64,000 nt of DNA from Callorhinchus milii (lineage: Eukaryota). Position numbers and translations under genes: made by a program. The notes below the pieces were generated by a model. It did no database searches, was not told where the DNA came from, and saw nothing but the letters and a program-made list of their open reading frames with translations. Shown here in pieces: positions 1,923-40,025 of this stretch (positions are counted from its first letter, which is position 1; each line of letters begins with the position of its first letter). The stretch is taken from assembly GCF_018977255.1 (NCBI RefSeq), contig NW_024704742.1, positions 66,900,001-66,964,000 of the forward strand, given 5' to 3'.

Positions 1923-2088
1923 GAAGTGAGCTTGTATCGACTCAACTGCCTGCAAGAGAAAAACAAGACTATTTTTGCATCTGTAAACTAAACAGGTTGC
2001 AGTAATATGACAATTAATCCAATTCATTTATGCTCAGAAATATTAGAATCATACAGAATGTTGTTCAAATACATTTGGTAACAAAACA

Positions 2089-3076
2089 TTGCTAACCCAC
2101 CTGACCGCTCGCTCCTGGTCCCCGCGTGCGCACTATGGCTGCTTCTCTGACCCGAGTCCCCTCATCCCCTCTCTCCCTCCCCCTCCTATCTCCCCCCAAA
2201 CCCTCCCCCCTCTGCATCTCTCCCTCTCTGTCCTCCTCTCTCTCTCCGTCCCCTCGCCTTCTATAACCACTTAACCCTCCCACAACCTCCCTCTGTTCCA
2301 GCCCAGGAATCCTCCGCCGGGCTCATCGTGGCACTCGGCGTTGGCTGTCCAGCAGCCACTGCCCCATTCCCCACCATACTCGCCAGCCACCCCGGACACA
2401 GACCCGGGGAGCCAACCTCTCCTCCCTCATTCCCATCCCCCCCGGGACTACAGGAACTCTCTCCTCATCGGCCTTGCCGGCACCTCCCTCCACAAGCTGT
2501 AGGTCATTCAGAACTCTGCAGCTCATGTACTGTCCCGCACCAGGCTTCACAACCACATCACTCCCACCCTCGCTCGCCTCCACTGGCTCCCCATCCCCCA
2601 GAGGATCGAATTCAAGATCCTCATCCTCACCTACACGGCCATTCACGGCCTCGCTCCCTCCTACCTCTCCGACCTACTATCCCCCTACCTACCTGCCCGT
2701 ACCCTCCGTTCCTCTGGCTCCGATCTGCTCCACATCTCCCGCCCCAACCGCCCTACCATCGGTGGTCGGGCCTTCAGCCTCTCAGCCCCGAGGCTCTGGA
2801 ACTCCATCCCCCAGTGCCTTCGCCGCTTCCTCCCTTTCCTCCTTCAAAGCCGGTCTCAAGACGTTTCTCTTCAACCGAGCCTTCAGCTCCCCTCTTGACT
2901 CTCTACCCCCTCCTCGCTCCCTCCCTTCCCTCACCCTGACCATTTCCCCCTCCTCGCTCCCTCCCTTCCCTCACCCTGACCATTTCCCCCCTGCTCGGGT
3001 CCCGACCCAACTGTCCAGCGCCTTGGGGTGTCCTCCCGACGTGAAAGGCGTTCTATAATTGCAATCTTGTTGTTGT
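2089..3076 (+). mobile_element. Internally deleted L2: 5' region fused to the post-RT C-terminus and tail
   Basis: 2445-3076 is closely similar to 46037-46668. 2089-2445 encodes GILRRAHRGTRR and GANLSSLIPIP, typical of the pre-endonuclease part of L2 ORF2. Confidence 0.8.
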
Positions 3077-3426
3077 ATTATATTTTCTTTTGCTCAATTT
3101 GGAAACTACATTCTGTATGTTTAATACTGTGCTGACTAACATTTTAATTGTACTTGCTGCAAAAATTAGCAAAATAGTTTCAAGATTTCCATGCTTGACA
3201 AAACAAACAGGCCCCAAAACTCCATTTTTTTGCAGATAAAAAACAGACTAAACAGTCCTTAAATGATGGGCAAGACTGGGGGAGTTTCCTCTTTATTTGT
3301 ATTGTATTCTTTGAATAACTAGGGTTTAGCTCCTCGTCTCTCAGACAGCGACTCCAAAAATATAGCACTCGCTGGAATGTCAGCTAAAGTTCTGTTGTGG
3401 ATTCGAATAAAAAAACCTCCAGCATA

Positions 3427-3975
3427 TAATAAAACTCACACACATCATATCTGGCAGGAACATGACATTTAATATGATTTACATAAAGTTCGAGTTGCAC
3501 GTAAACTTGTGCAAGTCATATAAGATCCCATTTAATCAATAATCTACATTGCCATATGTAATTCAATGCAGCCAGTAAGTGCACATGCGTGGACTAGTCA
3601 AGATTACATTTCCCGCGATTCAATGCGATTTGATCCATTGCCGTATGCGCACTTATCGGCAAGCATTGGCATCGCGGGAATTTAAGTTCTTCTGCATATG
3701 CGTCGACAGATCAAGACTATGTTTCCTGCAATTCAATGCAGCCAGTCGCTAAGTGCTGCAACCAGTCAGGATGTCACTAGCCTCTATTCAATGCAGCCAG
3801 TAAGTGCGGGTGAAATGGAGGATAGGGGAGCAGGTTTACAAATTAGGATATGATTAATAAGACTAGTGCAAAGAAATCTAAATGGATTTGATAGGAAACT
3901 GAATGGACTCAGGTGCATGTACGACTTAAGACGATTAGATTATTTATAAGTATAAAACTTATGCAAATGTTACTG
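3427..3975 (+). mobile_element. Tigger/pogo-like MITE, long copy with internal repeats
   Basis: TA-flanked degenerate TIRs (TAATAAAACTCAC.. / ..CTTATGCAAATGTTACTG); homologous to copies at 12096, 53615 and 58689. Confidence 0.7.
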
Positions 3976-6900
3976 TATAAACTTCATATAGATTAGCCAG
4001 ATAACTATAGACCAGTTTATCTGACAAATTGTAGTCAATTGCTTCAATCTAGTGAATTAGTGTTAATTCACAAATTAACACTAATTATACACTCCAAAAC
4101 GACTCTGCATGAAGGGCACTATATAAATGCAAGTTGTTGTTGAAATGAACACTTGAAAATATATGGACCACTCAATTGTGACCACTCAAAAAGTATTTGT
4201 TAAAGGGCAGGTTGTGCTTAAATAATCAGTAAATGATTCTGATTCTACAACCTATGTATCAAATCTTAATAAAATATGCAGAAATACACAAATCCCTATA
4301 GAGTCGTAATAACTTATGAAGTAGGCTAGTTGTCAACATCATCTTGTGCCTGTAAAGGCCAAAGTCGCAGGGAGGGAAAATAAAGTAAAATTTAAAACAT
4401 ATCGAGCAAGGTAGAAAAAAGTGTTTTTATTAAAAAAAACTTCCTATTGAAATTAACCTTCCAATTAACTTTCAACTTCTTCCAAATCATTCATATCTGT
4501 TTTCTTACTTCAGTGCCTGTGCAATAAAAAAATATTTCCTTGTCCCAACAATGACGCAACCTAAAGTGATACATCACTGTATCACTTGGCGCTGCAAAAA
4601 CACACTGAATCCTTCACTCCAAGAATTAAACGCGCTGCTTCAATCCTCTGTAAATGTTTATTTTATCTGACATTTAATTCTTAAAGTAACATTCTAATAA
4701 TTAGAATGTTAATGACATTTCATTAACATTATAATTATTGTTATAATTATAATTAATTGGCACTTCCAAGAGAGAGGAGACTTCCCGAACATTCCAAGAA
4801 AGAATCCGAGAAACAGTCAATTAATTTAAATGTTAATCCTTAAACTGCAAATATAATTAACACAAAAGCTTTTTTGGGTACTCTGAAAATCAAATTGTAT
4901 GAGAATTTTCTAAAGTACTATATTACACAAATTATAAATTGAAGATACATAGATCATATGTAATGAGAATGCAGGCATTACTCCTCATAATTTATGTATT
5001 GAATGCTCATTGATCCATTTTCAGTGCATGTTTTACACTAACAAAATCATTTCACCTTTTCTCCATACCATGTTAGTACCCGTGGGTACCAGTTCAAAGT
5101 TATACCTTTGTTTATACAATAGAAGTTAGCTGTTTTAAAAAGTTAAAAGCCAATTTGCGGAAAGCCATTTTGAGCATATAACAGAAAAAGGGGACTGCTC
5201 TTAAGCCAAACCTGAGCAAAAATTTCAGCTGCCCACCATATATTATATTCAGTAAGATGATCTTCAGAACAAAATAATTTATATATAAAGCACTTTTCAC
5301 GTCAAAACGACATCTCAAAATGCTTAACACAACTGACTGTGAGCCCAAGCTGGTGGTGGTGGGGGAGGGATGGGGAGGATAGCCAAAAGTACTGTCAAGG
5401 AGATAGGTCTCATGGTCGGGAGGTGAAAGGAGAGAGGGAGAGGACAATGAATGGAAGTTGTATGGAACGGGTAGACATTTATCTCTAAGCAGGCAGACAT
5501 CTGGGAAGTACAGGCAAAGAACTGCAAAATCAGCCATGGAGAATCTAAAGGATTCGTCCAGAATAGCAAATACAAGTGCTTTTTAGAGTATTCACGTGAA
5601 AAACACACCCTAGACATATTTAAAAGGTTTACTGCAAGATGGCTTGGTTATTGTGCCAGAATTTTGTAGCCAAATCTCAGCTTCCTCCATCCCACCCATC
5701 ATTAAACAATTTCAAAAGCATGTACATGTGGAGGAGGAGGTGTATATGATACTCATGCATAAAGAGGGTAGGTCTTTTTAACAGATAAGTATATGCAGAT
5801 GACCGTAGCAAGAATCTCAACTGTGGAAAAAACTCAGTGAAAATGTAATAAAGTGTTTTTTTGAATAAAAGGATCAGAAGTAATCCTTACAGAAAGCACA
5901 TGTATCTTATTCTGACATACATACCTCACCACTAATTTCATATTTCTCAGTTAAATATCCAACCTAGCAATTCAAAGCAAAGACATAGCTATATGGTTGC
6001 AAATTACAACCCAACTTGTATATTCCCCATAATCACACAACAGAGTATTGATAGCTTTATCATCCAAGTCTGTTGTCAAATATTTTTCTTTCTTCTAAAG
6101 AACTAATTTTGTTTTGATAAAAACTAATCCCAAAGAGGGTGATTAACAGTCACCTCCTGCAGATTACAGTGTGCCCAACTGCAATTTCATCTGCTTTGAC
6201 TGGATAATGCAAAGATAGATCACCCTGAGGATCACCTTTTTAGATTATTTGTCTGAATGTAAACCAATATTATGTTTAAACAGACAATGCATTTTAAATA
6301 TTTTTAAATGCAGAACTTTTCCCAGCATGTCTGTATCACAAAGTTCTGCTTTAAATATCAAATGCAAACTGGTGAAGTATTAGAGCAAGAACTTATCTGA
6401 ATAACATATTCACTCAGTTTTCATTTTGTTAATTCAATCAAAGGAAAAGCACCAGTTTTAATGCAGCAGGGAAGCAATAATAATCCATGCATTTGATACA
6501 GTGCTTTATCACATCATTAAGACATCTCAAAGAGCTTCACAGAATATACTGTAAAGTGAATTGACTGTATATTTTGTGGAGAAAACAATAAATTGCTGAA
6601 ATTAGCTTGTCGCCAAGTATAAGCAATGCCTTTGTTTAAGGTCTCATTTTGAAAAAAACACAGCAATTTTACTTTGTACAAATCCTATTTACAGGCTTCA
6701 TAAGATTTCAAAATAAAAACACTTCAAATAAAAATAATTTGTCAAAGCTAAAGCCAAACACTTTCAGTTACTTGTTAGGGTCATTAAAGGTTAGAACATC
6801 ACTATATAATTCAGACCAAAGTTAGCACTCGGAAATGTGGCATTTCTCTTTCTATAAACCTACTACAGAAATGCACAGCTGCTGAATTCAAAATTGTACC

Positions 6901-8021
6901 CAGTTATGGATTCTGAGTTTCTCTAAACTCTTGACCAACAGTCCTCTAGATAAAATTGGTCCTTCACTCAGGGCTGTTTGTGAGACATTACTGTGTGCAA
7001 ATCTGCTGCCAAATTCACCTACAAATACAATCACGACACTTTACAATAATTCCCTGTGAAACACTTGGCAGAGATGTTTCAAAATTATGGAAGGATTGCA
7101 AGGATTTACTATGGTTCATTAGAAAATGTACTGTATAATGTGATACAAAAATATATATTATATAGTACTTATCACACCTGGAGGACATTGTTGGAGATGG
7201 CAACATCCCAGTCGTCTGTCCACAGGTGGATGCAAAGATCCTATTATATTATTTAGAGGTATTTTTGCCTGGGGTGGGGGGTTAATCAATAATGCTCTGG
7301 GTAAAATTGTTCATTCACCTGGTGACTGTTGGTGAGACTGAAGCTGAAAGTGATTCAGTGAAGAAAGATGAATATATATTTCCCATATTTCCCAAATACT
7401 TGTTAAAAGAACCCAAGGGGAAGTGAGAAGAATTTTTTTCACACAGCAAGTTTCTGAAATGCATTGCCTGAAAGGGTAGTGGAAGCCGATTTGCATGCAT
7501 AGTGCTCCTCTAACCACTGCGAGTAGTTTTTAAAAACTGTTGAAGAGCTGGTTGAGTGACTGATTCTGTAACATTGAAAACTGTCCTTAAAAGTTCTTGA
7601 GCAGCCTAAAAGCTTTATTGAGTAGACCTGAATTGATTTACACCATGCTGGTGTGAATCGATGCCTTGGACAAACACACGCCCCTTCACAGTTGACAACT
7701 GGATTCCAGCCTAAATCACTGTGAAAGGCATGTCTTGGTTCCAAGTTATTTTTAAAACTGTTTTCTTTCAGGGATTTGCTGCCATTTTCTTCTCATAAAA
7801 GGTGCAGTATAAACTGTGTCAGACCAAAAAAACTTGTTTGTGTTTTATCATTTAGCAAAGTTTGATTTTGCATTTGTTATATTTTCAAATAAAATACTAA
7901 CTTTACAGTAATATAAATGCAGGAACAAAACATTTCCTAAACTCACTTTCAGACCATTATTCATAAAAGGAACATCTTAAAAGGTTTCACGATGCAAACT
8001 CTCATAGATACAAATAACTTT

Positions 8022-8515
8022 ACAACAACAAAATTACATTTGCATAGTGCCTTTCGTGTCAGGAGGACGTCCCAAGTTGCTGGACTATCAGTATTTCGGA
8101 CCCGAGCTGGGGGTCCGGATCAGGGAGGGTGGAAGGCAGAGGGTGAAGGAAGGCATGGTTGAAGAGGAGGGTCTTCAGACGGGTCTTGAAGGAGGCAAGG
8201 GAAGGGTCGAGGCGGAGTGACTACAGGATGGAGTTCCAGAGGGTGGGGGCAGAGTGGCAGAAAGCCTGCCAATGATAGGGCAGGCGAAGCAGGGGGTGTG
8301 AAGCAGGAGCCCCCTGAGTGGAGAAAGTGGGCAGGGATTTAGTAGGTCGCAGATTTGGAGGGGAGCGAGGCCATGGAGGGCTTTCAAGGTGAGGAGCAGG
8401 ATCTTGAACTGTAGCCTTTGTGTGATGGGAAGCCAGTGGAGTCAAGCGAGGATGGGGGTAATAGGATCACGGAGTCTGGTGCAGGAGGACACGGGCTGCA
8501 GAGTTTTAGATGATC
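8022..8515 (-). mobile_element. L2 3' fragment
   Basis: KALHGLAP and APTLWNSI motifs plus L2 tail. Confidence 0.88.
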
Positions 8516-8685
8516 AACTTTATACAGCAGTTAAGTGAAGTTTAATGTGCTGTAGTACAAGATACATTTAAATAGAGGATTTTTTTTTAGGGGAAGAGGC
8601 TACCTAACCATCTAATTAGCTAGCTAGTTAAGTAACTGTAATTCCTTATTTCCCCTCCATCTTTTCCTGCAACCAAGTTATTAAT

Positions 8686-9042
8686 AATAGTAATAATGAT
8701 CCTTCCATTTGATATTGCGCCTTATCACATTATCAAGACATCTCAAAAGCCTTCACCGAATATACCGTAACATGAATTGAATGTATATTTGGTGGTTAAA
8801 ACGCAGCAGCCTGTGTCCCACAAACAGTCGTGGGTTGAGTGACCACATTTCTTTTTAAAGGGATTATCATCCACAGAAAGCGATCCGCCAATCGATTAAC
8901 AACCGTGTTCCTGCTTACTGCTAGGTTAACAGACATGTGTGGAGTAAGAAAACTAGCCTAAGGTTTTATCCAGCCAAGGAATCGAACTTGGGTCTACTCG
9001 CTTACAAGGCAAGTGTTCTAACCACTACGGAACAGCACTCCA
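8686..9042 (-). mobile_element. SINE family A, full length
   Basis: Reverse complement of the 1605-1922 type, with an (ATT)n tail. Confidence 0.88.
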
Positions 9043-12000
9043 CAGGAAATCACTCTAATTTGTAATCTGAAAGTCTCTATATTGATACTTTGAAGTTCAG
9101 GCAGCTATTTGCAAATGTGTGAGTCTTGACAATGATCCTGTCCACACTGCACATCTTCCTGCAGGAGTCACGAGATAGCAATCAGGAGTGGAAAGTCGAA
9201 GGGCGTTGTGGCCAGTCGAACCATTGCTACTTGCTGCCACAGCTGAGATAAGTTAACTCTACACAGGAAAAGGCAAATTCAAGTCTGTTTTAAAAAAAAG
9301 TTCAATGATTTATTCGCAAGATGAATAATCTGTCCAATAACCTAAACTAAGTGCAGCTGTGCTGCTGAAATATCCAGCTGGCAACACTGAATTTATATAA
9401 GCAGAGGAATTTTCCTTCTGAGTCCTGTGAACAGGTTTTCCCCCAAAACATAGTTGGAATACCTACAATACCAATACAAGACAGTTGGGCCCAATGCTTC
9501 ATAGACGTCCTCCTGACACGAAAGGCAGTATTAATATTTTCACAAAGCTGCAAATTAGATGCAGTTTTACTGTAGCTTGCACCACAAGGGAGAGAAGTTC
9601 ATCACATATGCAAATCAAACAAGAACAATGCACGAGTTAGCAGCTTCCTGCACCGTTGGCAAATTTTCTGTCACTTTACTATTGACTCTGATCCCATTCT
9701 CCTGCTCCCTATCCACATCCTTTAATATTCTTCTTTTTCAATATCTCATTTCCGATTTAAAATATTGATGAATTCTTGCCTTAACTACAATTTGTGGTAG
9801 ATTTCCAAATTCTAACCAACTCTCTATCCAAAGGTTTATTTTTCTGACCTCCTATTGACTAGGCTCTGTGGTTATCTTAAATTTGTCTCCTCTTATTACT
9901 GGCTCCCCACTGGTGGAAGGAATCTAATACTTTTTTGGTCAAAGCAGAATTTAATTTTGACATTAAATTGTCATGTAGTTCTTCAACTTCAAGCCAATTA
10001 TGAACAATAACATACTTACTAAGTGATTTTTTACAGAGTGAGCTAAATGACTAATATTTCATCAGAATTCCTGTTGTACAGAAAGATGTTTTTTTTTAAA
10101 AAGGTAACATTTGTATTTTATTACCCCACCCCCCCAATTGTGCTAGAGCGATCCAAGAATATTGTTTGATGATTACAAAATGATTTCTGCCTGCTGAAGG
10201 CTGGTAATTTCCAACCAGGGAGATATAAGAAACTAAGAGTAAAGAGGATATTACAAAATACTAATGCCAGGTCAGAAGATGTTGTATATTTGCCTAAGAA
10301 ATGATTTACGTTGCAAAGAAATAAACACAAACATACACAAAAAAAATGAGGAATGATACTTTGGTGCACTATCACTCACGGGTTGCATTTTGAAACAGAC
10401 AGAACAAAAAATCTATGTGGATCAAAATTGTGATTAATGAGTGGCCAATGCAAAAACTGCCATTACCACCACCTAAACTGACAGTACTTGTTTCACCAAA
10501 ATTCCAATCTGACAGAAAAAAATACAGGAAATATTCAAAATAGCTGAAGCATACAACAATGAATTAATCTTTAGAATCCAGTGGACAGGTTAGCCCATTT
10601 AGTGCACTCAAGTTGTCAATACCATGGATGAGATATATTAATGTTAACCTGGTCATATCTATGAAGCATGAAAAGGATAGAAGGAAGTCAGACTGATCAG
10701 AAATAAATGTTTAAGTTACAAAAATAATGTTTTAAGTGTGTATGATTAATATTACAGTAATGAAGGTACTCTTGTAAGGCAACAATTTTAATGTTATAGC
10801 TTGCAGGATGAAGTTTTGGAAAATGGCATTCCCTGACGCTGCTGTCAGCCTATGGATTAAGGTGTACCTGTTTAGAAAATATCTATTTTAGGTACAAAAA
10901 GTTTGTATTTCTTCAGAACAGGCAATTTAATGCTTGTTAATATACAAATATCAGAATTTTGTAAAAAATGATTAGACTGCATCTGTAATCCATTGCATTT
11001 AGCACTCTACTACGTATAGCAACGATAACACTAACAATTTCCATTTACTTAACACCCTCGACTCGCTTAGGGTCTTGGAGCACTCAAGTGGAACAAATTG
11101 CACAATCATAATAATCACAAATCAATTAAAAAATGCAATCATAATAAGGACCTGTGCATTTCATTGTTTTTATTTAAAACAAGTTTATGTTTCAGGTGAG
11201 TCACAGAATCAGGATCTTTTTCAAACCGCTTGATCTAATAATTAGATTCTGATTAACATTAACCTTTTAATTCTGCACAAATTCAGGATACGAATGTCCT
11301 GGGGACAACTCTCTACTCATCTGGGAATGCACTAAACTTGATCTGGGAATGAGTTTTATTCCCTGCTAGTTGATAAATCCGAGTCATCAGTTTGCCATTG
11401 ATATAATTTCTGGCACTGAATGATTGGATAGTATGTGCTTAGCATTTTCCCATTTTAGGTACACACCACCAAGCTCTAAATTTACTATCCAGGGCAGAAT
11501 AGTTCACATTCACCCACCATAGTAAGTACATTTATCACATGGATAATCTCATCCAACATAATAATAATAATCCTTGCATTTGATATAGTACCTTGTCACG
11601 TGATAAGAACATCCCAAAGCGCTTCACAGGATTTACTGTGAAATGGAGTAACTGTGTATTTGCAGGCAAGCATGTTTAAAAAGGATTACCAACAAATACA
11701 CTGGTATTACAACGTGGTGTTTTGGGTCCATAAAATTGAACCGTGCATTACAATTGAAATAAAAAAAAGGATTCAGATCCCACTTCCGAGTCATCAGGTC
11801 ACTATTGATATGACTTTTGACGGTAACTGGCAAGATTCGTGCACATGCCTGTTAGGAGTGAAAGCATACCACCTCTGGTCCACTACCCACACTATAACAA
11901 GTCACATTATAATGGGGTCGGACTAGCATTATTGTAAAAAGAAAGTACTGGTGTCATTTTTGGGTGCATTTACTTGGAAGCATTACTGAGCCTTGCAGCA

Positions 12001-12095
12001 TAAGGAAGCTGCATCAAAAGGCTTTATTCCAAAGAATGGCATAACAAGCATTGCTTCAACTGAAACGATTAAAAAATTCACAGAACATAACAATT

Positions 12096-12559
12096 TAGTG
12101 AAACTCACAGAAGTCTTAATCAGTCGGGAGTATAACATTTAATATGACTTGCACAAAGTATGAATTACAAGCAAACTTGTCATATAAGTCATATAAAATC
12201 CAATTTAATCATTAATCTATTATATAATTACAACATTTGATAAAGCGCTTTATCACGTCTTCGAGACGTCTCAAAGTGCTTCACAGAATATACTGCAAAG
12301 TGAATTGACTGTATATTTTGTGGGTGAAATCTCCACTGTGCATGCATACTTCCATGCAGTGGTAAGTGCGCATGCGTCCACATGTCAGACTATTTCCCGC
12401 GATTCAATGCAACTGGTAGCATTACGAATTAGGAGACAATTTGCTTTATAAAATACAATTCGTGCAAAAAAATCTTAGGTAGGAAACTGAATGGGACTCT
12501 GGTGCATACGACAGGCGATAATACGATTTATAAAGATAAGACTTGAGCAAGTTTTATTA
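12096..12559 (+). mobile_element. Same MITE family, interrupted by a SINE tail (about 12222-12330)
   Basis: Shares ACATTTAATATGA, TTTCCCGCGATTCAATGC and TAGGAAACTGAATGG with the 3427-3975 copy. Confidence 0.7.
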
Positions 12560-13088
12560 AATTAATTAGGTTGTCTCTGCTACTTGAGATTTTCAAGTCA
12601 AAGCCCAAGAAGATACGATTGTCCCAGCAGGACAAGTAGCACAACGTTTGCCAGTCAGCAAACACACATTCTGCAGTCCCAAAGCTTTGACTCTCGCCAA
12701 CCTGTGCAGATACTCTCCAGGGTTAGGTGAGCAGGATGCGTCCCACCAAGGAGTGTGCATCTCAAAGGAATCGGAAAGGCAGGCACTAGTAACTGCTCTC
12801 ACCAGTGAATAGTTTTCCAGTTATTGTGATATGAAGATTACCTCAAAGTGAACCCGGATATATTTACTGTCTACAACAAGTAACTAATGGCAGATTTGGT
12901 GAATAATAATCAGTGAAACAAACTAAAACAAAACAAAGATAAGCAAAAGTATTTTTAAAAAGTTAACATGCAGTACTTACATTACAAAGCATTTAATATT
13001 ATAAATTAAGACTGACAATATTGTGAAACAGATTGTTCCAGGTCATTTGATGTTTGTTACGAACCATAACATAGAACATGTATTGTAC

Positions 13089-13271
13089 CTTTCTCTTTAA
13101 GGCGCTGAGTTTCTCCACCACTCCATCCAGCAAGGTCACTACAGAATCCACAGCTGGGCAGTTGCTCAAGGTTTTCTCTAGTTCTGCAACTACCATGGTC
13201 ACATGACTTGTTTCTCGGTCAATATTTTTCTGAGCGGCTCGAAAGCGCTTGTTCAAAGTTTCATAAGGTAC
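13089..13271 (-). CDS. MAEA: MAEA coding exon 2, [61 protein letters not shown]
   Basis: Acceptor tttgtag|GTACCT and donor AAG|gtacaa; 183 nt, phase 0/0, in frame with exon 1. Overlaps track ORF 12999..13256. Confidence 0.97.
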
Positions 13272-13899
13272 CTACAAACAAAGGTTAAAATTGTTTGGTT
13301 GCAAAATGCTGAAACAATCAATGATATTATTTGGATTCATATTTCTTTGGTTAAAAATGGTTCTCTCACTGAAAAACTGAATCTTTAAATGAAAGAATGT
13401 TTTTGTATTTTCACATAGGAAAATAAATCACTGACTATTTGTTTGGGAAGAGAAAGGCTGACTTTCTGAAATGTCAACAATTTCCAGAAAAACACTGACT
13501 CATCAATGATGTAACTAAAATGTTCTAATCCAACAGTTTATTTACAACAGTGAATGTCCAGCCAGGCTGCAAGAAAAAGCATCATATAGCAACTTGTCAA
13601 TATTTGATTCAGACTAAAATAACCATAAGCATGTTGCAGAGGAGAATAGATTTTAAAAGTCAACCTTTTCTAACACATTACTGTACTATTTAATCACAAA
13701 CCACCTCAGGGGAGGGGGAGAGGAGAATACAAACCCGAAACATTGCTGCTTTGTTTAGACAAACCAATTAATTTAATAGGAATCTGACTCCCATTGCAGT
13801 GTAGGCCGCAGCATAAAATAGCAGAACATTAAATAGTAGTGTTTACGAAATAAGATACTCTCATTTGGTTTTATACTTCTGTAATGGGTCCCAACTTTA

Positions 13900-13990
13900 C
13901 ACGAATCATAGAAAGTTGACAACACAAAAAGAGGCCATTCTGCCCATCGCAGCTGCCCCACTGAAGCCTGTTACTGTCTTCCCATTCCCC
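13900..13990 (-). mobile_element. CR1 3' tail fragment in MAEA intron 1
   Basis: GAATCATAGAA..GAGGCCATTCTGCCCATC. Other CR1 3' scraps at about 20750-21030(+), 26245-26450(+), 27510-27590(-), 33470-33615(+) and 63795-63908(+). Confidence 0.7.
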
Positions 13991-14199
13991 TACTTTCTCT
14001 CCTCCCCCAATGTTCTTTTGAGCTTCTTCTCAGTATAATGACAGTCTGAACATTTTTGTTTACAATTTCCGGGTCGCTCACAAGGACCACAGTTGCTCTC
14101 AGTTTGCCGAACCTCACAAAGGGGGGAAAAAAAAACCTGACAAGTGAATGTGACATTTTGTATTGAACATTAATCGCAAGCAGCACCGTGGCATTCTCG

Positions 14200-14788
14200 C
14201 CATCCTCCCCCTCCCGAACAGCCACACACAGAATACATCGATTACCGTTTTACATAAAAGAGAGAAAACCAACCACCGCGCGGTTTGGTTTCACCTTGAA
14301 TTCGGCACTGGGTGGGGGCGGTGACACAAACGATTTGCCTCGGAAAAATAGCTGCAAAAGAGGTTGAAACGGCCTCTTTTTTTTTCCCCCCCTCCCCTCA
14401 GTCAGCGACTAAAAAAGGTCGTGTTTTCACTCAAAAATAGCAGCCCTTCTTTCTGCTCAGAAAATGGGTGAAGCAGCCGAGGATGGGGGGTGGGGGGTGG
14501 GGGGGACACGGACAGGCGCGGCGGCCTCGGGGTTCACCAACAGCCGTACCTTCAGAGTGGGGTATTCCTGCACCTTTAACGCCATCGAGAGCTGAGCAGC
14601 GGACTCCTGCACCGCCATCTTATCTCAACTATCAATACTCCGAGGCAACATGGGTAGACCAGACCGGACGTGAGGGCGACAGACAGACAAGACAGACAGA
14701 GACGGAGGGAGAGAGAGAGAGGGAGAGAGGAAGAGGATGTTTGCGAGAGTGAGAAAAAAAGCGTGAGAGAAAATCAGAGAAAAAAAGG

Positions 14789-14821
<33 letters not shown>

Positions 14822-15560
14822 GAGTGTTAGTGAAAAAAAATGAGAGAGAAAGGGAGAATGTGTGTGTGTGTGTGTGTGTGTCAGAGAGGAGGGGAATCGG
14901 ATGGGGTTTATTCAAAGGCAAAAAGTTTGTCCCCGTTCGTCAATCAACTTCGTCGAAGTCAAACCGACTTTTTTTTAAAAAATACGAAAACCGAGTGGAG
15001 CGCGAGACGACAGTTCATCTTCTTCTTCCTCCTCTTCCTCCTCCTCCCCCTCCCCCCGGGCGCGGAGAAAGAAACGAGTTAATTTAACAGAAAGTTTACG
15101 GGGCCAGAGTTTCGTGTGTGTGTGTGTGTATATATATATATAATATGTATATAAAAGTAATGATTTCCTCTGCTGTGGCTCCGCTTTCCCCCTTCGTTTT
15201 GCTGGTCAGCCTGACGTCACGGGGGAGAGCGCAGCCCAACACACCTGACGTGAAGCTGCCGTCATCCTCGCCCCCTCCCCCTCGCTCTCCCAAACAGCCA
15301 ATCACCCGCGCGCACTGCTGATAGACGTATACACTGACCAACCCAACCTGCTTAGTAGAGCGGAAGTTCCACCCTTCAACTCCCCCCTCCCACCCCCGGG
15401 CCGCGTGGAGCCACGGGACAATAAGACAATAGGATGCGCACGGCTCTTCGTCCCGCCCATGCGCCGCCCTCAATATTGATCGATGTACATTCTGACCAAT
15501 CGGAAGATTCAGCGCAGCAAATGCCTCCACTCCCGCCCCGCCCCCGCCTGGGATTTTGAT
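14200..15560. promoter_or_regulatory. MAEA CpG-island promoter
   Basis: CpG-rich. Perfect CRE TGACGTCA at 15212-15219 and TGACGTGA at 15246-15253; CCAAT boxes at 15298-15302 and 15496-15500; ETS GCGGAAGT at 15360-15367; GC boxes at 15531-15548; YY1-type AAGATGGCGG over the start codon. GA/GT microsatellites occupy 14680-14890 and 15113-15150. Confidence 0.8.
14550..14618 (-). CDS. MAEA: MAEA (CTLH/GID E3 ligase subunit, Gid9 orthologue) coding exon 1, [23 protein letters not shown]
   Basis: Manual translation of the reverse complement: aagATGGCG start (A at 14618), 69 nt = 23 codons, then donor AAG|gtacgg. The peptide is near-identical to the vertebrate MAEA N-terminus as I recall it. Confidence 0.97.
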
Positions 15561-16234
15561 CGACGTGTGAACAGATGCTGTAGGTATTTCTCAGTGATGA
15601 CCAGGACAGAGAATGACAAGTTCAGCCTCGTGTGAGGGGACTGTGTTTCCCCACAAACAGCAGCCACGATGGAACACCAGGACATAAACCAAGAGGCACA
15701 TTGCTGTGCGCACCAGCAGATTGCCATCCAGCTTCCTGGTGGGGTTTTTGCAATAATCCAGAGATGTTTTGTCAACTCTATAATTGACCAGACCGGCTGC
15801 AGCTGCTGCAGACATTAAGCAAAGCACCGTGATACCGTATAGATAAAGCATAGCTGTTGAATGTCCCACCTGTGAGCTGTACACAATGAGAATCCCCTAT
15901 ACAGTCAATTCACTTTACAGTGTGTTCTGTGAAGCGCTTTGGGACGTCCTCCCGACGTGAAAAGCGCTATATCAAATGCAAGGATTATTATTATTATTGT
16001 GGCTGCCAACACTGCAGCTCCCAGAACTGGACCTGCCATTAGACTGTAGGTCCTAAAGGTAACCTTCAGAGCTCTGTGCTCTTCCAGGGAACGCCCCAAA
16101 GTTCTTCCACATAACGTAAAACATGGCAGATGCAAAGACGTGGAACTCAATGTTGAACGGGTACATATAATGGGAACTGTTGTAGAAAATAGCGCAGGCA
16201 TTTCTATTGCAGCTGCAATTTGATCCAGTGTCAC
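15560..16234 (-). pseudogene. OTOP1: Otopetrin (OTOP1-like proton channel) pseudo-exon, equivalent to the 5' part of the large penultimate OTOP1 exon; frameshifted, SINE-interrupted and 3'-truncated
   Basis: Acceptor atttctttgtag| at 16234, phase 1. Stitched translation: DTGSNCSCNRNACAIFYNSSHYMYPFNIEFHVFASAMFYVMWKNFG / RSLEEHRALKVTFRTYSLMAGPVLGAAVLAATI / [SINE] GILIVYSSQVGHSTAMLYLYGITVLCLMSAAAAAGLVNYRVDKTSLDYCKNPTRKLDGNLLVRTA / SWFMSWCSIVAAVCGETQSPHTRLNLSFSVLVITEKYLQHLF. This is colinear with recalled OTOP1 motifs CNC..YLYPFNIEY..LYVLWKNIG, GAVLGLTVLAATI, YLYAITLL, SLDESKNPARKLD, SWLISWGSI and EKYIQNLF. Ortholog versus paralog is unresolved. Confidence 0.9.
15898..15998 (+). mobile_element. 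5'-truncated SINE tail inserted into the OTOP1-like exon
   Basis: ACAGTCAATTCACTTTACAGT..GCGCTTTGGGACGTCCTCCCGACGTGAAAAGCGCTATATCAAATGCAAGG(ATT)n; otopetrin homology resumes on both sides. Confidence 0.9.
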
Positions 16235-17138
16235 CTACAAAGAAATGGAATGAAGCATTAACTTGAAATTGGGCCCGAGATTACTTGGTAACAAAAGTCT
16301 ACTTACTGTTGGCATCCTTAAAATATCATTGTAAATTCCTGTTTATTTTTGGTAGGCACTTTGTAATAACCCTTCAAGTCCCTATTCAAATGTATTTTCA
16401 AGTCATTTTGCAATTGCATTGCAATTTTTGTTACCAAAATGAGTGCCTTATCACATCAAAACATCCTTCATAAATGTAAATTATATTCAATCATGAAACG
16501 TCTGAAAGCACTTCACAGGTAATTGCTGTCAAGCGTAGTGACTGTTTTTTTCACAAGCAAACATGTCCGTCATTTACAGCAGCAAGATCCCAAAGACTGG
16601 CATGGGAAAAATAGCTAATCTACGTGGGATAGCTAGTTAAACACAACAGCAAGCAGTTTTGGGTCCAACATTTTCACAAAATCAGGGCAGGGAAGAGGGG
16701 GAGTTTACCTAATGAGCTAATCCACTGGGATATTTCCAGGACCAGAATATCTGCCAATGTAATAATAATCACCCTTCTAATTACGACACTGAAAATCACA
16801 TTCTCTCCATATTTCTATTTTTCTTTGATTCTTCATACAAAGACACTCCACTCATTAAAAGAACATCTACTTTATTCACTCTATGGTTGTCTGGGACATT
16901 GCTTTGCGTAAAATTGTCCCCTACAAAACAGTGACTTTACAGTATATTCTGCAAAGCGCTTTGGGATGTCCTCCCGACATTAAAGTTGCTAGACCATTTG
17001 TAAGGATTAATATTATCTATTAGTTAGGATTAACATACATTATTCCCAATTGAATCTCCAAATTTTTGGTCGTTGGAAGACATCTATCATGAAATGATTA
17101 AAGCTTATGTTGAAGCAATGGAAAAGATCCCAAAATGA

Positions 17139-17258
<120 letters not shown>

Positions 17259-19650
17259 TGAAAGGTACAATGCCTTTCACATAAAGCATGTCTCAAAATG
17301 TTGATGGATGTAATGGTGAGCACCAATAATAATAAAAAATAATCCCTGCGTTTGATTTAACATGTATAATGTCAAATTGTAGAAAAAGTGTTTTACAGCA
17401 ATTAAGTGCAGTGACTGCGTATTTGTAGGCAAACTCAGCAGCCAATATGTGCACAAACCATGTCTGACAAAGAGCCAGGTGGTGACTGACAATTTATGAT
17501 TAAAGCACAATCAAATAGTTATGTAAGATACATCATTTTTATGCCATGGTTCACTTGATGGAATGAATTGTTCTCATCTCCTATTGTTATTCTCGCCACC
17601 TCTTTTCCCATTTTCAGGTCTCAGCAGAGGACCTTTCTTTTTGACTGCGTCTTTGGTCATCTTCTTCACCTGAGATTGGGCCCGAAACCACTATTTCATC
17701 TCCCTCAACTCCTATATCCCTCTCCCCACTGCCTCCAAACGTACCACCATCTCCTACCACCCCTGGAAGAAGATCTCCCCGCAATCCCTCTCCGATGCCC
17801 TGGAGTCCTCTGAACTCCTTACACTCCAGCTCACCTCCTGCACCAACTCATCCTCTGCATTTAGTCTCCTCCACAGCACCCTCTCCACCACACTCGACAC
17901 CCTTGCCCCTATCGCCTCCCGAACTGCTTCCTATTCCCGATCCTCACCCTGGTTCACCAGTAAAGATCAATGCTGATTTATAGCTGACAAGTGTTTGTGC
18001 AAGCCATTTTTAAGAAAATTGTCTTTGGGTCGAGATCAGCTTACCTGCTTTACAGTCAACGTCAGCTCATCTCATCAAAAACAGCACTTTGAAATTGTTG
18101 ACATTGTTGACTTCCCTAACTACCTTAAAGACCCTTCTCTTCGATCATATCTACAGTCATTTCCCCTCTTCCCTCGATTGGGCTACTAACTATGCAAACC
18201 TTTCTCCAAAACACTCCAAGGTGCTATCCTGCATGAAGGCTATTATATAAATGCAAGTAATTGTTTTGAATGGGTTTGAGCTTGCCAGGCTGTGATCGGC
18301 TGCACCAATTACCGATTGCTAGATGGTTCTACGGACGATGTGAATGTAACTGATTTGGGCGGGAAAACAAAAACTAAATGACAATAATTATTTCAATACT
18401 TGTCCACCAGAATTTCAACCAATAGACTGGAAACAAGTAAATGTGGATGTTTTATTCAGAGTTGTAAACGTTACATCTGTCAACTATAGACACATTTGTC
18501 TGATCTTAATAAATGGAAAACGCATTAAAACGCACTGGAAGATTATCTGTATGAAAATAGCCCAATAAATGACAGTATGATAGGAGGATAAACCCTGTCA
18601 CTACCTTTTATGGTCATTGATGATCAACCTATGTTAAGGGAGCTAACAAGGGCTGGTTTTAACTTTTGTGATAATTGAGCACCAGCTCGCACGGATAATT
18701 GAGCACCAGTATAAAGCTGGGGGCTTGGGCATATCTGCAGAAGGTTGACGTGGAGCTCCCTTGCTAAAATCAACCTTTTTTTTTTTGGTGTGTGACCCAA
18801 ATCCTCCTACAGCCATGAGAACTTGGAGTCCAGATGATTTTATTACTTGAGTTCTTTAGGAAACTGCTTAATATTGGGTTTGGAAGACTAAAGGATAGAT
18901 ACTTTGGTAAGTAAACAAACATATTTTCCTTCTGTTCAAAAAATAGTCCCTTCCTGGATTGTTTTGTGCCTGTGTGAAGTAATACATTTTTCCACAATGT
19001 CTGATGACAATCCCTGCACCATGCCCCTCTGGGTTCTTCTGGTCAACCAGTTACATATACATTGTAACTCTTTTGCACTAATTCCTGCCTTCTTTACTTT
19101 CAGTAGCAGCCTCTTGAGCGATTAAAGGCCTTACTAAAATCCAGATATAAAACATCCACAGCCTTATTGAGTTCCTTTGTCAAACCATCAAAGAAAAGCA
19201 GTAAATTTAGATTGGCAAAACGTGTCCTTCATGAACCGATATTGGCTATCATTTGTAACTTTATTTCTGCCCAGGTACACTGTGATTTTATCTTTAATAA
19301 GAGTCCCCAAAATTGTGTGTCAAGCTGGCTTAGTTGGTAGCACTCTCACCTCTGAGTCAGAAGCTTGAGGGACTTGATCTCATGAGCTGAGATCTCCCTT
19401 GCCGGAACTCAAACTCACATAGTCTAAGATAATACTCCAGTGCAGTGGTGTAAGTGTTTTGCATTCTTGGATGAGACATTCAATTGAGGTCCAATCTGCC
19501 TGTTTGCCACAACATGAAAAAAGCAAGGGAGTTTCTCCCAGGGTCCTGACATGAAGGTAATGGAAAATTGTGTGCCCATGGAAAGCAAAAGTACCATGCT
19601 TAAAGGCACTCTTGCCTGGTTGGACGGAGCTACAAAGCAACTCATCAAAA

Positions 19651-19844
19651 GGAAAAAAGCATTTAAGGCCAATGAAGGAAAATGACACAGAGTTACGTCA
19701 GATTCAATACCAGAAGACACGCGAGGACTGTTTCTAAAAAAATAAAAGGAATCAGAATGGCGTCAAACTTTGCATGTCTTCTGGTATTGAATCTGATGTA
19801 ACTCTGTGCTGTTTTCCTTCATTGGCCTTCAATGCTTCTTTTCC
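19651..19844. repeat. Long inverted repeat (arms 19651-19724 and 19770-19844, 45-nt spacer)
   Basis: The arms are reverse complements with only a handful of mismatches, e.g. AAGGCCAATGAAGGAAAA..CACAGAGTTAC.TCAGATTCAATACCAGAAGACA. Confidence 0.92.
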
Positions 19845-21936
19845 GTTATTGTCTTAAACAGCTCTTTGGCTCGGACTATGGTGTGAGACTATGGTAAATG
19901 GAATCTTGTTGTTGAGAGGGTTGAACGCTTTTTGGAATGTGCCTCTGTTGAGAGTGTGGGTAAGGAACATAGCACAGGTATGTTTGACTCGTATACAGTA
20001 TTTGTGCAGCGCCATGAGGAACAAGAAGTAAGAATGATTTGAGCTCCTTGATTATATTCAAGAATGATATTGTTGATTCTTCAATGTGATATAAATTGTC
20101 ATAGCAATATCACAATGGATATGTTCCAATGAAATTGTGTGTAAGGCTGGCTCAGATGGTACGACTGGCAACTCTGGGTCTTAGGGTTGTGAGTTGGGCC
20201 CAGTCTTGTTTTTGAATACAGTTTATAATCCTGACAAATCTGAAATCTGTTTTTAAACTGTTTTTGAATACAGTTTATAATCCTGACAAAACTTTGAAAG
20301 AAATAATCATGATTAAATACAATAACTGCAAGCATGCGTACTGCTAACTGTGCTCCCTGCTCCGTTGCGTCGCCCGATTAACCACTTACAAGGATTGAAC
20401 GAGTTCAGAGAATATACATTCCATTAGTATAATCTTGGGCCCAACCTCCTCTTTGTCCCTTGTACTGTTCGCTCCGCCTTCAGACACTCCAGTTCGAAAT
20501 TCTGGAACTTCTTCCCTCAATCCCTCCACCTTGTCCCCTCCCTCCTCACTTTCAAATCCCACCTAAAGAACTTCCTTTTTGATCGTTTCTTACGGTCACC
20601 TCCCCTTTCCCCCTGGCTTGGGGTCAGACTCCACCACTGTCGAGGGCTCTGTGATGCTATCCCGCCTGACGGGCGCTATATAAATGCAAGATGTTGTTGT
20701 TGCGTAATTTGTGTAAGTGCAGTGAAAGAGGACTCTTTTTGCCTGGTTGGAACTAGGAAGGTTGTGGGGTGATCGATCTGATTTGACAAGAATCACAGGT
20801 CATTGAGTCAGTAACCAGAGGGCATCGATTTAACAATAGTGAGTAAACAAACAAAATAGAGAGGTGAGAAGAAACACGCACAGAGTTCAGGGTCCATATT
20901 TGCCTTCAAGAAGGAACTGGACAAAGAAAAGTCAGCTGCAATGATGGGGGTTAAAGGGCAGGTAAATGGTACTGAAAAGATTGCTCTTAAAGGCGTGAGC
21001 ATGGATACAATGGGCCAGATGTTCCTCCACCTCCCACAACAAAAACACACACCAGTCCCTTCAACAACAACTTGCATTCACAGGATAGCGTCCCAGAGCG
21101 CTTAACAGTGCAGAGCACAAGGCCAAGTAGGAGGAGGTGACCCTAAGCACAGTTGAGGAGGGTCTATTTCAGCACCTTGGGATATCCTCCCGACGTAAAA
21201 GATGCAATACAAATGTAATTTTGTGTTTGTTGTTGAAAGCCCAGCCACCAATGGTTGAACGCTCCGAGACGCGTGTCCGGCGTGGAGGGCGCTATATAAA
21301 TCCAAGTTGTTGTTGTTGTTGAACGGATTCCTCACCCACCCACCACCAGCCCCTCCCACTCAGACACCACCAGCCTCTCCCCCATTAAACACCAGCCCCT
21401 AAACTCATTGAGAAAATGCTGTTGATCCGGTCATTACCTTTTGTCCTTTTGATATAGGAGATGTGTGTGTGTGTGTGTGTGCGATGGGGGCAAAAAAAAA
21501 AACTGCGCCTTTGAATGAGTCGTGTATTAGTTGCGTCTTTTCAGGAAATTATGTTGCCAATGTAAACTTGGTGTCTTCTGATCAGAAATAATAAAATGCA
21601 ATGTTCCCGAGGACAGAATGGTTTGATGAACAAAGTAGGAGAGAGGGAGGAGGACTGGTCCTGCTGTGCAACACCAAGTTACTGAAAACAAACGTGGGAC
21701 TGGCCCTTTGCAAGTGTCCTGGGTCGGGAATGGTGGGTTGTGGTGATGTATTTGTATTGAGAGTCTGTGTTGGTGCACACGAGGGAGGAGAGAGCGAGGG
21801 AGGAATTTGTTAAATGTCACAATTGTAGCGTTATTGCTCACTGTGTTGGAATTGGGAAGAGACCAAAGACAGGCAAGTCAGGACTACCCGACAACAGTTT
21901 GTGCAGATTTCCTAAGCAATGTTTGTGAAACTTCAA

Positions 21937-22214: not shown

Positions 22215-22749
22215 TGTCTCTGCCTTCCCCCAACTCCATAAACTCGTGTGATATTTTTTTTTAAAAAAAAGCACGAAACTCGGTTCTGTTTTCCGTCTCC
22301 GAGATCTGAAAAACACACCCGAAAGAAGTCGGATTTCCCCTTCGCTGTCACCATTGCGACGGTCAGTAGTTTGCAGGGCTCCGGGTTTGCAGCTTGTGAT
22401 GTGTTGGGGACTGAATGCTTCGGTCCCGATCTATTTAAATCTTATAGCTCCGCAAACGTTACCGGTTCCCTCACCGGTGAATGCAATAATCAGATTTTTT
22501 TTTTTTAAACGCGTTGGTGTTAAAACAAATTAGACCTCACCATTTCCTTGTGGCATAGGGACACTTGAACTAACTCTGACCCCCCTTTTTTTTTCCCCCC
22601 CTTCTGTTTATTGCAATTAACAGTTTGTTGAGCGGGGTCTGTGGGTGTTGGTGGGTGTTTTCCTCCCCTCTGGGTGTCCCGCGGGGTTTTTCACGCAGTT
22701 ATTTTTTTACCCAAAAAATAAATAAAATAAATGCGATGTTTATTAGCAG

Positions 22750-23764
22750 TTTCCAGCAGAGGGTCAAATGATGTGCATCGCATCACACGCCGTTGTTCCG
22801 CAGATGTTGTAAACGTCGAGAGCGGACTTTCCTCTCCGGTGAAGGAGGCAGCAGAGCCCGGGGAGGGGGAGGGGGAGAGGGGAGAGGACCGGGTGCGTGT
22901 GCAGAGAGGCGTCGCATCTGGAGGGCAAAAGCGGAGGATGGAATCTGTCCGCTTTGTGCGGTGTGTGGACTTTGCGGGGAGTGGGGGGGAGGGGAGGAGG
23001 GAGGGGGGGGGGTGTTCATCGGAACAGTGCCGCTGTAATTGCCGGAGTTGCGCGGGGAGGGAAGCCGCTGTGGGGGCACTGTGGCTGTGGGGGCACTGTG
23101 GCTGTGGGGGCACTGTGGCTGTGGGGGCACTGTGCTGTGGCTGTGGGGGCACTGGGCTGTGCTGTGGCTGTGGGGGCACTGGGCTGTGGCTGTGGCTGTG
23201 GGGCACTGTGGCTGTGGCTGTGGGGCACTGTGGCTGTGCTGTGGCTGTGGGGGCACTGTGGCGGCACTGTGGCTGTGGGGGCACTGTGCTGTGGCTGTGC
23301 TGGCTGTGGGGGCACTGTGGCTGTGGCTGTGGCTGTGGGGGCACTGGGCTGTGGCTGTGCTGTGGCTGTGGGGGCACTGGGCTGTGGCTGTAGCTGTGGC
23401 TGTGGGGGCACTGTGGCTGTGGGGGCACTGTGGCTGTGGGGGCACTGTGGCTGTGGGGGCACTGTGGCTGTGGGGGCACTGTGGCTGTGGGGGCACTGTG
23501 GCTGTGGGGGCACTGTGGCTGTGGGGGCACTGTGGCTGTGGCTGTGCTGTGGCTGTGCTGTGGGGGCACTGTGGCTGTGGCTGTGCTGTGGCTGTGCTGT
23601 GGGGGCACTGTGGCTGTGCTGTGGCTGTGGGGGCACTGTGGCTGTGGGGGCACTGTGCTGTGGCTGTGCTGTGGGGGCACTGTGCTGTGGGGGCACTGTG
23701 GCTGTGGGGGCACTGTGCTGTGGCTGTGCTGTGGGGGCACTGTGTTTGCTGTGCGTTGAAAAAG
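22750..23764 (+). other. CTBP1: Candidate CTBP1 non-coding exon 1 (start approximate), containing the minisatellite
   Basis: Lies in a CpG-rich island and ends at a good donor AAAG|gtacgt (GT at 23765). The TSS cannot be fixed from sequence alone. Confidence 0.5.
23067..23744 (+). repeat. G-rich minisatellite: 17-bp unit GCTGTGGGGGCACTGTG with interspersed GCTGT/GCTGTG units
   Basis: Directly visible tandem array; it produces the long low-complexity ORFs in the track. Confidence 0.97.
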
Positions 23765-24106
23765 GTACGTGAGATCTCGTCCGCGTTCCTCCCCTCAGTT
23801 TGCAGGGGATCAGCTGCCCCCGAGAGCTCAGTCAGTCACTCGCCCTGTGGCCGCTCGGGGGCCACTTTCGCCATATTTTTGTTGATTCAGATCCACTGAA
23901 GGTGATGGGAGTGACTTCTCCAGAGTCCATTCCCCTCCCAACCTTCTCTCTCTCTCTCTCTCTCTTTCTCTATCTCTTTTAACCTTCCGTTTCGTCATCG
24001 AGAGCCTCGACTTGTGTTTCAATAGAAATGTATTTTTTTTTAAAAAAACGCACACCCTCTGCCTTCGGGAGTTGTGTTTGACACAGCGTTTCACAGCACT
24101 CATCGG

Positions 24107-38900: not shown

Positions 38901-40025
38901 AAGCAAAATGGAAGCCCACAGTATTAAAGGGAAAGTGGATACAGAGCTGGCTGGGAGCCAGAAAGCAGAGAGTGGTGATGAACAGTTGTTTTTCTGATTG
39001 GAGAGAGCTGTGCAGTGGTGTCCCCTAGGGGTCAGTATTAAGACCACTGTTGATTTTAATATATATAAATGACCTGAACTTGGATATAGGGAGTAAAATT
39101 TCCAGGTTTGCATATTGCATATTTCCTAAGCTAGGAAAAGTAATAAATGATGAGGTGAATAGTAGCAGACTGTAAATGGATATAGACAGACTGGTAAAAT
39201 GGGCAGACATGTGGCCGATGAAGTTTAATGTGGAGAAATACAAAGTGATGTATTTTGGGAGGACAAATGAGGAGAGGCAATATAAGCTGATGGTACAATC
39301 TTAAAGGGGGTGAAGAAACAGACACCTGGGGGTTCATATCAGTAAATCTTTGAAGGTAGCAGGACAGGTAGATAAAGCTGTTTTTTTTTAAAAAAGCATG
39401 CAGGATACTAGGTTTTATAAATAGGGGAATAGAATACAAAAGTCAGGAGGTTAATGATGAACCTTTATAAAACACTGGTAGAGTACTGTGTTCAGTTCTG
39501 GGCACCGCACTTTAGGAAGGATGCCAAGGCATTGGAGAGGGTGCAAAGGAGATTTACCAGAACGGTACCAAGAATGAGGGACGTCAGTTATGAGAAGAGG
39601 TTAGAGAAGCTAGGATTATTCTCCTTGGAGCAGAGAAGGTTAAGAGGAGACTTAATAGAAGCTTTTAAAATTATGAAGGGATTTGATAGGGTGAAAAAGG
39701 AGAAACTATTTCCACTGGCGGGTGGGTTGGTAACCTGAGGACACAAATTTAAAATAATTTTAAAAAGAAACAAGAGGGGAGGTGAGGAGAATTTTTTTTC
39801 ACACAGCGAGTTGTTCGGATCTGGAATGCGTTGTCTGAAATAGTGGTGGAAGCTGATTCGATAATAACTTTTAAGGGAGAAGCAGACAATTGTTTGGGGA
39901 GGACAAGTTTGCAGGGCTATGGGGAGAGAGCAGGGAAGTGGGATTGAATTGGATAGCTCTTTTCAAAGAGCCGGCACAGACACAATGGGCTGAATGGCCT
40001 CCTTCTATGCTGTAAAATTCTATGA
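35950..40025 (+). mobile_element. Near-full-length degenerate CR1 LINE (5' UTR, ORF1 zinc finger/SGNH esterase, ORF2 APE endonuclease + RT, 3' tail)
   Basis: ORF1 remnants VIGDTMMK..RMVCCLPSARVEDI and DGLHLN. ORF2 remnants NAWSVTNKIGEL..DIVATTETWL, YRPSNS, EDFNYPNI, LDLVL, KSPGLDGMHP, NYRPVSLTSVVGK, QHGFVKGKSCLTNL, YMDFQKAFDKV and EYCVQFWAPH..LERVQRRFT. Tail GGGCTGAATGGCCTCCTTCTATG. Many stops and frameshifts. Confidence 0.95.

Follow-up and report, generated by a model that had tools for sequence, protein, structure and literature searches.

What is the broken otopetrin sequence that lies beside MAEA in the elephant shark Callorhinchus milii: the last trace of a lost OTOP1 gene, the relic of an additional one, or something else? 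The sequence is found in a window of 64,000 nucleotides (nt), the whole stretch of DNA that was analysed (C1:66900001-66964000 in a 991.5-Mb assembly); coordinates without a prefix are window positions, and those of the fragment are on the minus strand. An original prediction had called it a hidden, decayed OTOP1-like gene between MAEA and CTBP1, and had offered either gene loss or an extra paralogue as its meaning. From the comparison with the rest of the genome, the fragment is very probably a dead, unprocessed, DNA-level duplicate of part of one OTOP1 exon, that is, ordinary genome debris, and a working OTOP1 is present elsewhere on C1.

The fragment (15570-16262) consists of 28 nt of intron with a polypyrimidine tract and an AG acceptor, followed by about 187 codons that are colinear with OTOP1, whose parent gene lies at C1:25.41 Mb. 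The exon copied is the large penultimate coding exon of OTOP1, of which the 5′ two thirds are kept. Its parts are as follows:

16235..16262, minus strand: OTOP1 intron remnant with polypyrimidine tract and AG acceptor, placed by alignment with the parent; parental homology stops at 16262.
15995..16234, minus strand: first part of the large-exon copy, about residues 232-311 of the OTOP1 model P0001, with a PF03189 match and 95% DNA identity to the parent.
15570..15896, minus strand: second part of the large-exon copy, reaching about residue 432 and lacking the final third of the exon.

The Pfam Otopetrin model (PF03189) matches 16053-16280 on the minus strand (E 3.6e-8; 33.2 bits against a cut-off of 27.8), this being the only one of the five pieces scanned to match Otopetrin, and between the fragment and the OTOP1 exon at C1:25.41 Mb the DNA identity is 90-95% (E 1e-104 to 1e-133). 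At the protein level, the read-through product has 92% identity to C. milii OTOP1 over 186 columns. The 186 codons compared correspond to residues ~232-432 in P0001, a model of 598 aa, in good agreement with the predicted stretch of about 190 codons, and their reading in the parent frame contains no in-frame stop. The acceptor AG occupies 16236-16235, the exon copy begins at 16234, and the parent exon is in phase 1, as foreseen. Judged on these alignments, the otopetrin homology is real and far beyond chance; the Pfam match, the DNA identity and a tree position within OTOP1 (see below) bear out the call of a decayed OTOP1-type sequence.

Since the 28 nt of intron and the splice acceptor are retained, the fragment is not a retrocopy. 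It combines an intron and splice site that were kept, disabling lesions and an intact parent elsewhere, as an unprocessed pseudogene does. No complete otopetrin open reading frame (~600 residues) is found here, only residues ~232-432, broken and without the other exons. With two thirds of the protein missing, proton-channel activity of the fragment would in practice be ruled out.

The parent was located by tblastn with P0001 and with P0002, the OTOP1 of Heptranchias, which recovered every coding exon of a working OTOP1, in order, at C1:25.41 Mb on the minus strand. The P0002 segments at this place cover residues 1-121, 119-170, 166-186, 186-546 and 533-602, the segment 186-546 being two exons parted by a short intron. 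In the large exon, 327 codons run without a stop as far as the donor. Its translation matches the database protein 'Otopetrin 1' of Callorhinchus milii (P0001, UniRef A0A4W3JE50), the nominal identity of 92% being due to a 27-residue stretch that is spliced out in the database model; the matches after P0001 are shark and ray proteins named OTOP1, and among the best 120 listed matches all named ones are called OTOP1 or otopetrin 1. OTOP1 is present in C. milii and looks intact; it has not been lost. The genome also contains three further otopetrin genes (C7:4866581-4870862, C1759:822-1427 and C1123:3239-3907), which are distant from OTOP1 in the tree and two of which sit on small unplaced contigs.

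Compared with this parent, against whose large exon all the lesions were measured, the fragment retains ~187 of ~600 codons and carries three frame-breaking lesions and a truncation. The first lesion is a +1 frameshift within 16094-16100, of which the exact base is ambiguous; the extra base had been predicted at 16094-16097, and it can be placed anywhere in the longer interval. This +1 is common to related copies at 41.25 and 58.02 Mb and to an inverted twin at 66.86 Mb, described below. The second is an insertion:

15897..15994, plus strand: 98-nt insertion, the 5′-truncated 3′ tail of a ~330-nt tRNA-derived short interspersed element (SINE) with an (ATT)n end, identified by alignment with full-length copies.

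This SINE tail had been anticipated at 15898-15998. Many genomic copies elsewhere are 99-100% identical to the 98-nt piece, six full-length copies were aligned, and the Rfam tRNA model matches the head of the element in both of the two full-length copies scanned (35-43 bits). Because it is identical to so many other copies in the genome, the SINE would have been inserted much later than the duplication; it is absent from the parent and from the copies at 41.25 and 58.02 Mb. The run at 15894-15897 does read GGGG in the fragment against GGG in the parent, as had been suspected, the additional base being the junction of the SINE insertion. Since 98 leaves a remainder of 2 on division by 3, the insertion alone explains the change of frame, and the separate extra-G lesion of the original prediction is unnecessary.

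Further along the fragment there is an in-frame deletion of 21 nt between 15856 and 15855, expected from the prediction with a size of about six codons and in fact comprising seven (EQRVSAV), and then a second +1 frameshift at 15701-15702, inside the predicted interval of 15697-15702. Parental homology finally breaks off midway through the exon, at 15570, and this abrupt end means that the exon copy is truncated; the truncation had not been noticed before, nor had the inverted twin of 99% identity or the other copies on C1. Past 15570 there is no match to the parent or the sister copies apart from low-complexity runs, and when parental sequence was sought at low stringency past either end of the fragment, nothing but repeats and a low-complexity TCC run turned up. 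The tandem-repeat scan of 13500-16300 gave only microsatellites and did not support a suspected ~100-bp tandem unit at 15300-15570.

We have also searched the genome at the DNA level with the whole parental exon, scoring all eight candidates, and this returned the parent and five copies, all of them on C1 (29.41, 41.25, 58.02, 66.86 and 66.92 Mb), together with two weak matches to the otopetrin paralogues on C1759 and C1123. The copies found by this search are:

C1:29406847-29407475: OTOP1 exon copy, 3′ two thirds only.
C1:41248745-41249740: OTOP1 exon copy, whole exon.
C1:58023322-58024320: OTOP1 exon copy, whole exon.
C1:66859511-66860205: inverted twin of the window copy, 99% identical.
C1:66915570-66916262: window OTOP1 exon copy, 5′ two thirds.

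No other OTOP1 exon was detected by tblastn within 20-60 kb around any of the five copies, which match OTOP1 residues 232-534 or less. Four copies extend to the 5′ end of the exon; in each of them parental homology stops 28 nt upstream of the acceptor, and the first +1 is common to them. The preceding exon of the parent, which lies only ~120 nt upstream of the large exon, is never included in the copies. Beyond the breakpoint, ~4 kb of non-OTOP1 flank (16263-20196) is common to the window, 41.25 and 58.02 Mb copies; window positions 16006-17944 and 19292-20196 are common to the 41.25 Mb copy, with similar spans at 58.02 Mb (88-93% identity), and the window flank upstream of 16262 has nothing in common with the parent. 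Two repeats were distinguished in this flank:

16281..17459, strand not assigned: interspersed repeat of ~1.15 kb, directly upstream of the exon copy, with copies at 84-92% on C3 and C4.
17687..17944, strand not assigned: high-copy SINE-like repeat of ~258 bp within the common flank, accounting for ~30 of 43 listed matches (88-90%) on many chromosomes.

On the downstream side, 0.3 kb of the following intron is retained in the sister copies. That at 41.25 Mb stops there, 0.3 kb downstream of the exon, and those at 58.02 and 29.41 Mb run kilobases further into parental downstream sequence, with identical internal deletions, one of which took away the last coding exon of OTOP1. The sister copies at 41.25, 58.02 and 29.41 Mb have the 5′ breakpoint, the first +1 and the flank in common with the window copy wherever they cover them; they lack its SINE, its 21-nt deletion and its second +1, and each has lesions of its own.

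Two further observations concern the flank. A 92% copy of part of it (window 16690-17944) is present at C1:30134269-30135552 without the OTOP1 exon, and may mark the landing place of the first duplicate or be another fragment of the block. The Rfam scan, which covered 14000-20500, gave a single match, a sub-threshold one to MIR8562 (45.8 against 211 bits) at 19648-19846, on an inverted-repeat element that is also in the 41.25 Mb copy.

In the protein tree, among whose sequences none was named OTOP2 or OTOP3, the four copies group in a single clade (100/98) that is sister to C. milii OTOP1 (100/99); the copies and this gene together nest in the OTOP1 of cartilaginous fishes (98/97), and the three other C. 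milii otopetrin paralogues fall outside. The branch lengths are 0.006 for the parent and 0.045 for the common stem of the copies. By the Kimura two-parameter (K2P) measure, the window copy is 4.7% from the parent and 4.2-5.2% from the copies at 41.25 and 58.02 Mb. The copy-to-copy distance of 4-5% would imply an age of the order of 10^7 years, on the neutral rates usually taken for vertebrates. The ratio of non-synonymous to synonymous change (dN/dS) is 0.62-0.99 among the copies and 0.48-1.02 against the parent, values that come from small counts and are only suggestive of relaxed constraint on the copies.

Taken together, the common 28-nt breakpoint, the common +1 and the single clade point to one partial, already dead duplicate that was re-copied. 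From the homology, the lesions, the inventory of copies, the common breakpoint and flank and the exons of the parent, we infer both the order of events and segmental duplication as their cause. The first event would have been a duplication on C1 that took in the 3′ part of OTOP1, starting 28 nt before the large exon and running past the gene. This partial duplicate would have been unable to encode a channel from the start; it would then have gained the first +1, lost the last exon and been joined on its 5′ side to unrelated repeat-rich sequence. Pieces of the chimeric block were probably re-copied to several places on C1 with differing end points, which favour segmental duplication over a transposon with fixed ends. 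The piece on the MAEA side would have kept the 5′ two thirds of the exon, and would later have gained the second +1, the 21-nt deletion and the truncated SINE.

The setting of the window copy next to MAEA has to be read with care. Its placement between MAEA and CTBP1 in the original prediction is roughly right, as MAEA exons 1 and 2 adjoin it and a CTBP1 exon lies on the far side, 135 kb past the window end; the local assembly is doubtful. The features concerned are:

14546..14675, minus strand: MAEA exon 1 (coding part 14618-14547), found by tblastn with MAEA proteins, 100% over 24 residues.
13086..13271, minus strand: MAEA exon 2, found by tblastn, 98% over 62 residues, and in spliced contigs.
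1929..18964, strand not assigned: arm of a 17-kb inverted repeat, ~99% identical to C1:66856812-66873908, holding the OTOP1 fragment and MAEA exons 1-2.

Over 17.1 kb, 44 substitutions and 38 indels separate the two arms, 25 of the indels being of 1 nt, and the differences are concentrated in the far arm's outermost 3 kb. With 3 kb so dense in 1-nt indels and substitutions, this end looks like a poorly polished contig end, and a run of 30 Ns (C1:66856711-66856740), ~70 bp past it, may be a gap. Both arms hold the OTOP1 fragment, the MAEA promoter and MAEA exons 1-2, with an identical relation of fragment to exon 1; exons 3-5 occur once, between the arms. The MAEA exons were found at C1:66861150-66898556, and one MAEA exon lies 1.5 kb before the window start. 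MAEA residues 253-418, encoded by the 3′ exons, were found nowhere in the assembly (all 43 candidates scored), and residues ~253-418 are present in the C. milii database proteins P0145 and P0189. The NCBI MAEA isoform X2 (P0123, 174 aa) ends by running into the intron after exon 5.

We have also checked whether read-derived contigs see one arm or two. The contig word depth of the arm is on a par with that of the single-copy segment 912-1637: in run X1 it is 8.8-11.7 against 9.2, and in run X6 it is 3.3-12.3 against 15. At the sites that distinguish the arms, one state only is seen per run: X1 has the far-arm state at 4540, 4597, 6116, 6125 and 9486 and at the 17-nt insertion at 5904, and X2 has a mixture. 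No contigs bridging the arm ends at 1929 and 18964 are listed, and repeats break the contigs there. The depth, the allele pattern and the missing MAEA 3′ exons make it probable that the inverted duplication is a false one, built from two haplotypes of a single locus. If so, there would be four extra OTOP1 exon copies and not five, and the lesions would have been read twice independently, once in each arm, so that assembly error would be a less likely source of them.

As for transcription and the neighbouring genes, RNA-like contigs of X5 and X6 (runs that were guessed to be RNA, no run being on record as such) are spliced from 14546 to 13267 and then from 13088 to 1948, the second junction leading from MAEA exon 2 into the opening ~20 nt of exon 3. 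The X5 mean depth of 6.6 in the bin 16009-16675 is low and ambiguous, and could be explained by true OTOP1 mRNA or by contigs of the sister copies. The truncated end of the fragment lies ~0.95 kb upstream of MAEA exon 1, on the same strand, and GC-rich sequence adjoins it. A CTBP1 exon was located at C1:67099.4 kb, 135 kb past the window end (in PDB, CTBP1 148 bits against CTBP2 136). In a Pfam scan of 71 of the 193 window open reading frames (at least 75 residues; at least about 300 nt, hand-chosen), no host-gene domains were found. The only matches in that scan were two fragments of long interspersed element (LINE) reverse transcriptase (Pfam RVT_1), at 38407-38994 and 44849-46447, the second being an open frame of 533 codons. 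Long open frames in all six frames, without a Pfam domain, occupy 22694-23896 (~1.2 kb); this is probably a GC-rich island, and might represent a promoter or a first exon, perhaps that of CTBP1.

Several points weigh against the view that the fragment is a re-copied piece of a dead segmental duplicate. Among the variant rows listed, none reaches 15702, 15855 or 16100, and the listed variants at 16097, 16104, 16107, 15629 and 15630 fit contigs of the sister copies. The dN/dS of 0.48 between window copy and parent is no proof of neutrality, the counts being small and the parent branch included. The doubtful local assembly makes the number of copies (five or four) and the orientation relative to CTBP1 uncertain. 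In addition, the mechanism of dispersal is one that we infer, and the ~1.15-kb interspersed repeat starts only 19 nt past the end of parental homology.

This proximity of the repeat, which has copies on C3 and C4, leaves some small chance that an OTOP1 exon was captured by, or travelled with, a mobile element (transduplication or transduction). Such a process would explain several copies on one chromosome, and the flank-only copy at C1:30.13 Mb and the wealth of SINEs and LINE fragments in the flanks speak for it too. However, on C3 and C4 the repeat occurs without any OTOP1 sequence, its copies ending before the exon, and the exon copies are all on one chromosome, as is usual with segmental duplication. 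The ends also differ from copy to copy: the window copy is cut in the exon at 15570 and the 29.41 Mb copy in the exon at its other side, the one at 41.25 Mb stops 0.3 kb past the exon, and those at 58.02 and 29.41 Mb extend kilobases downstream. The copies showed no termini in common, in an inspection that was not a systematic search for terminal repeats or target-site duplications. The chance is slimmer still that the chimeric block is a recombination-prone or mobile unit of C1 whose MAEA-side copy became part of the MAEA promoter region, serving there as a regulatory sequence or as one transcribed upstream; the copy does lie ~0.8-0.95 kb upstream of the first MAEA exon, on the same strand.

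Very improbable, and largely refuted, is the proposal that a once complete extra OTOP1 paralogue stood beside MAEA and decayed in place. The fragment does keep an intron end and a splice acceptor, and MAEA, CTBP1 and OTOP1 are all on one chromosome in C. milii, as they are in human, where all three are on 4p16.3. Nevertheless, what is left is only two thirds of one exon, with no other OTOP1 exon in the window or in the 60 kb upstream of it. Its 5′ end point, 28 nt into an intron of ~120 nt, is identical at 41.25 and 58.02 Mb, as is the ~4 kb of non-OTOP1 flank, and the +1 frameshift is common to the sister copies; the reading of the fragment as the relic of an extra paralogue at this locus thereby overstates the case. 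Lineage-specific loss of OTOP1, in which the fragment would be what remains of a sole copy, has nothing for it apart from the decay of the fragment and is refuted by the gene at C1:25.41 Mb, which has all its coding exons, an open large exon and the identity of the C. milii database protein Otopetrin 1, and by the three more otopetrin paralogues in the genome.

The nearest known counterpart of the probable segmental duplicate of C. milii is a human one. According to Hurle et al. (2011; PMC3038909), human psi-OTOP1 and psi-TMEM128 lie in a ~60-kb segmental duplication on pericentromeric chromosome 2, and psi-OTOP1 is 96% identical to OTOP1, with stops and indels. The elephant-shark fragment resembles it in being a non-functional DNA-level duplicate of a parent that is intact, with an identity of ~95% against the human 96%. 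The human pseudogene (PMC3038909) covers most of the gene and a neighbour, in a single copy on another chromosome; C. milii, in contrast, has one exon or part of it, in four to five copies, on the parent's chromosome and with a common partial intermediate. A search of the literature on Callorhinchus otopetrins and OTOP1 pseudogenes found no description of the elephant-shark copies.

For users of this genome, the analysis flags a probable misassembly at the MAEA locus, with an inverted 17-kb duplicate and the MAEA 3′ exons missing, and five OTOP1-exon pseudogene fragments on C1 that could seed false gene models or false calls of gene loss. Since OTOP1 is kept in the elephant shark, nothing follows from the fragment for the formation of otoliths or otoconia or for acid sensing. 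What the copies provide is a modest but well-resolved case of segmental duplication proceeding by steps, in a genome that evolves slowly.

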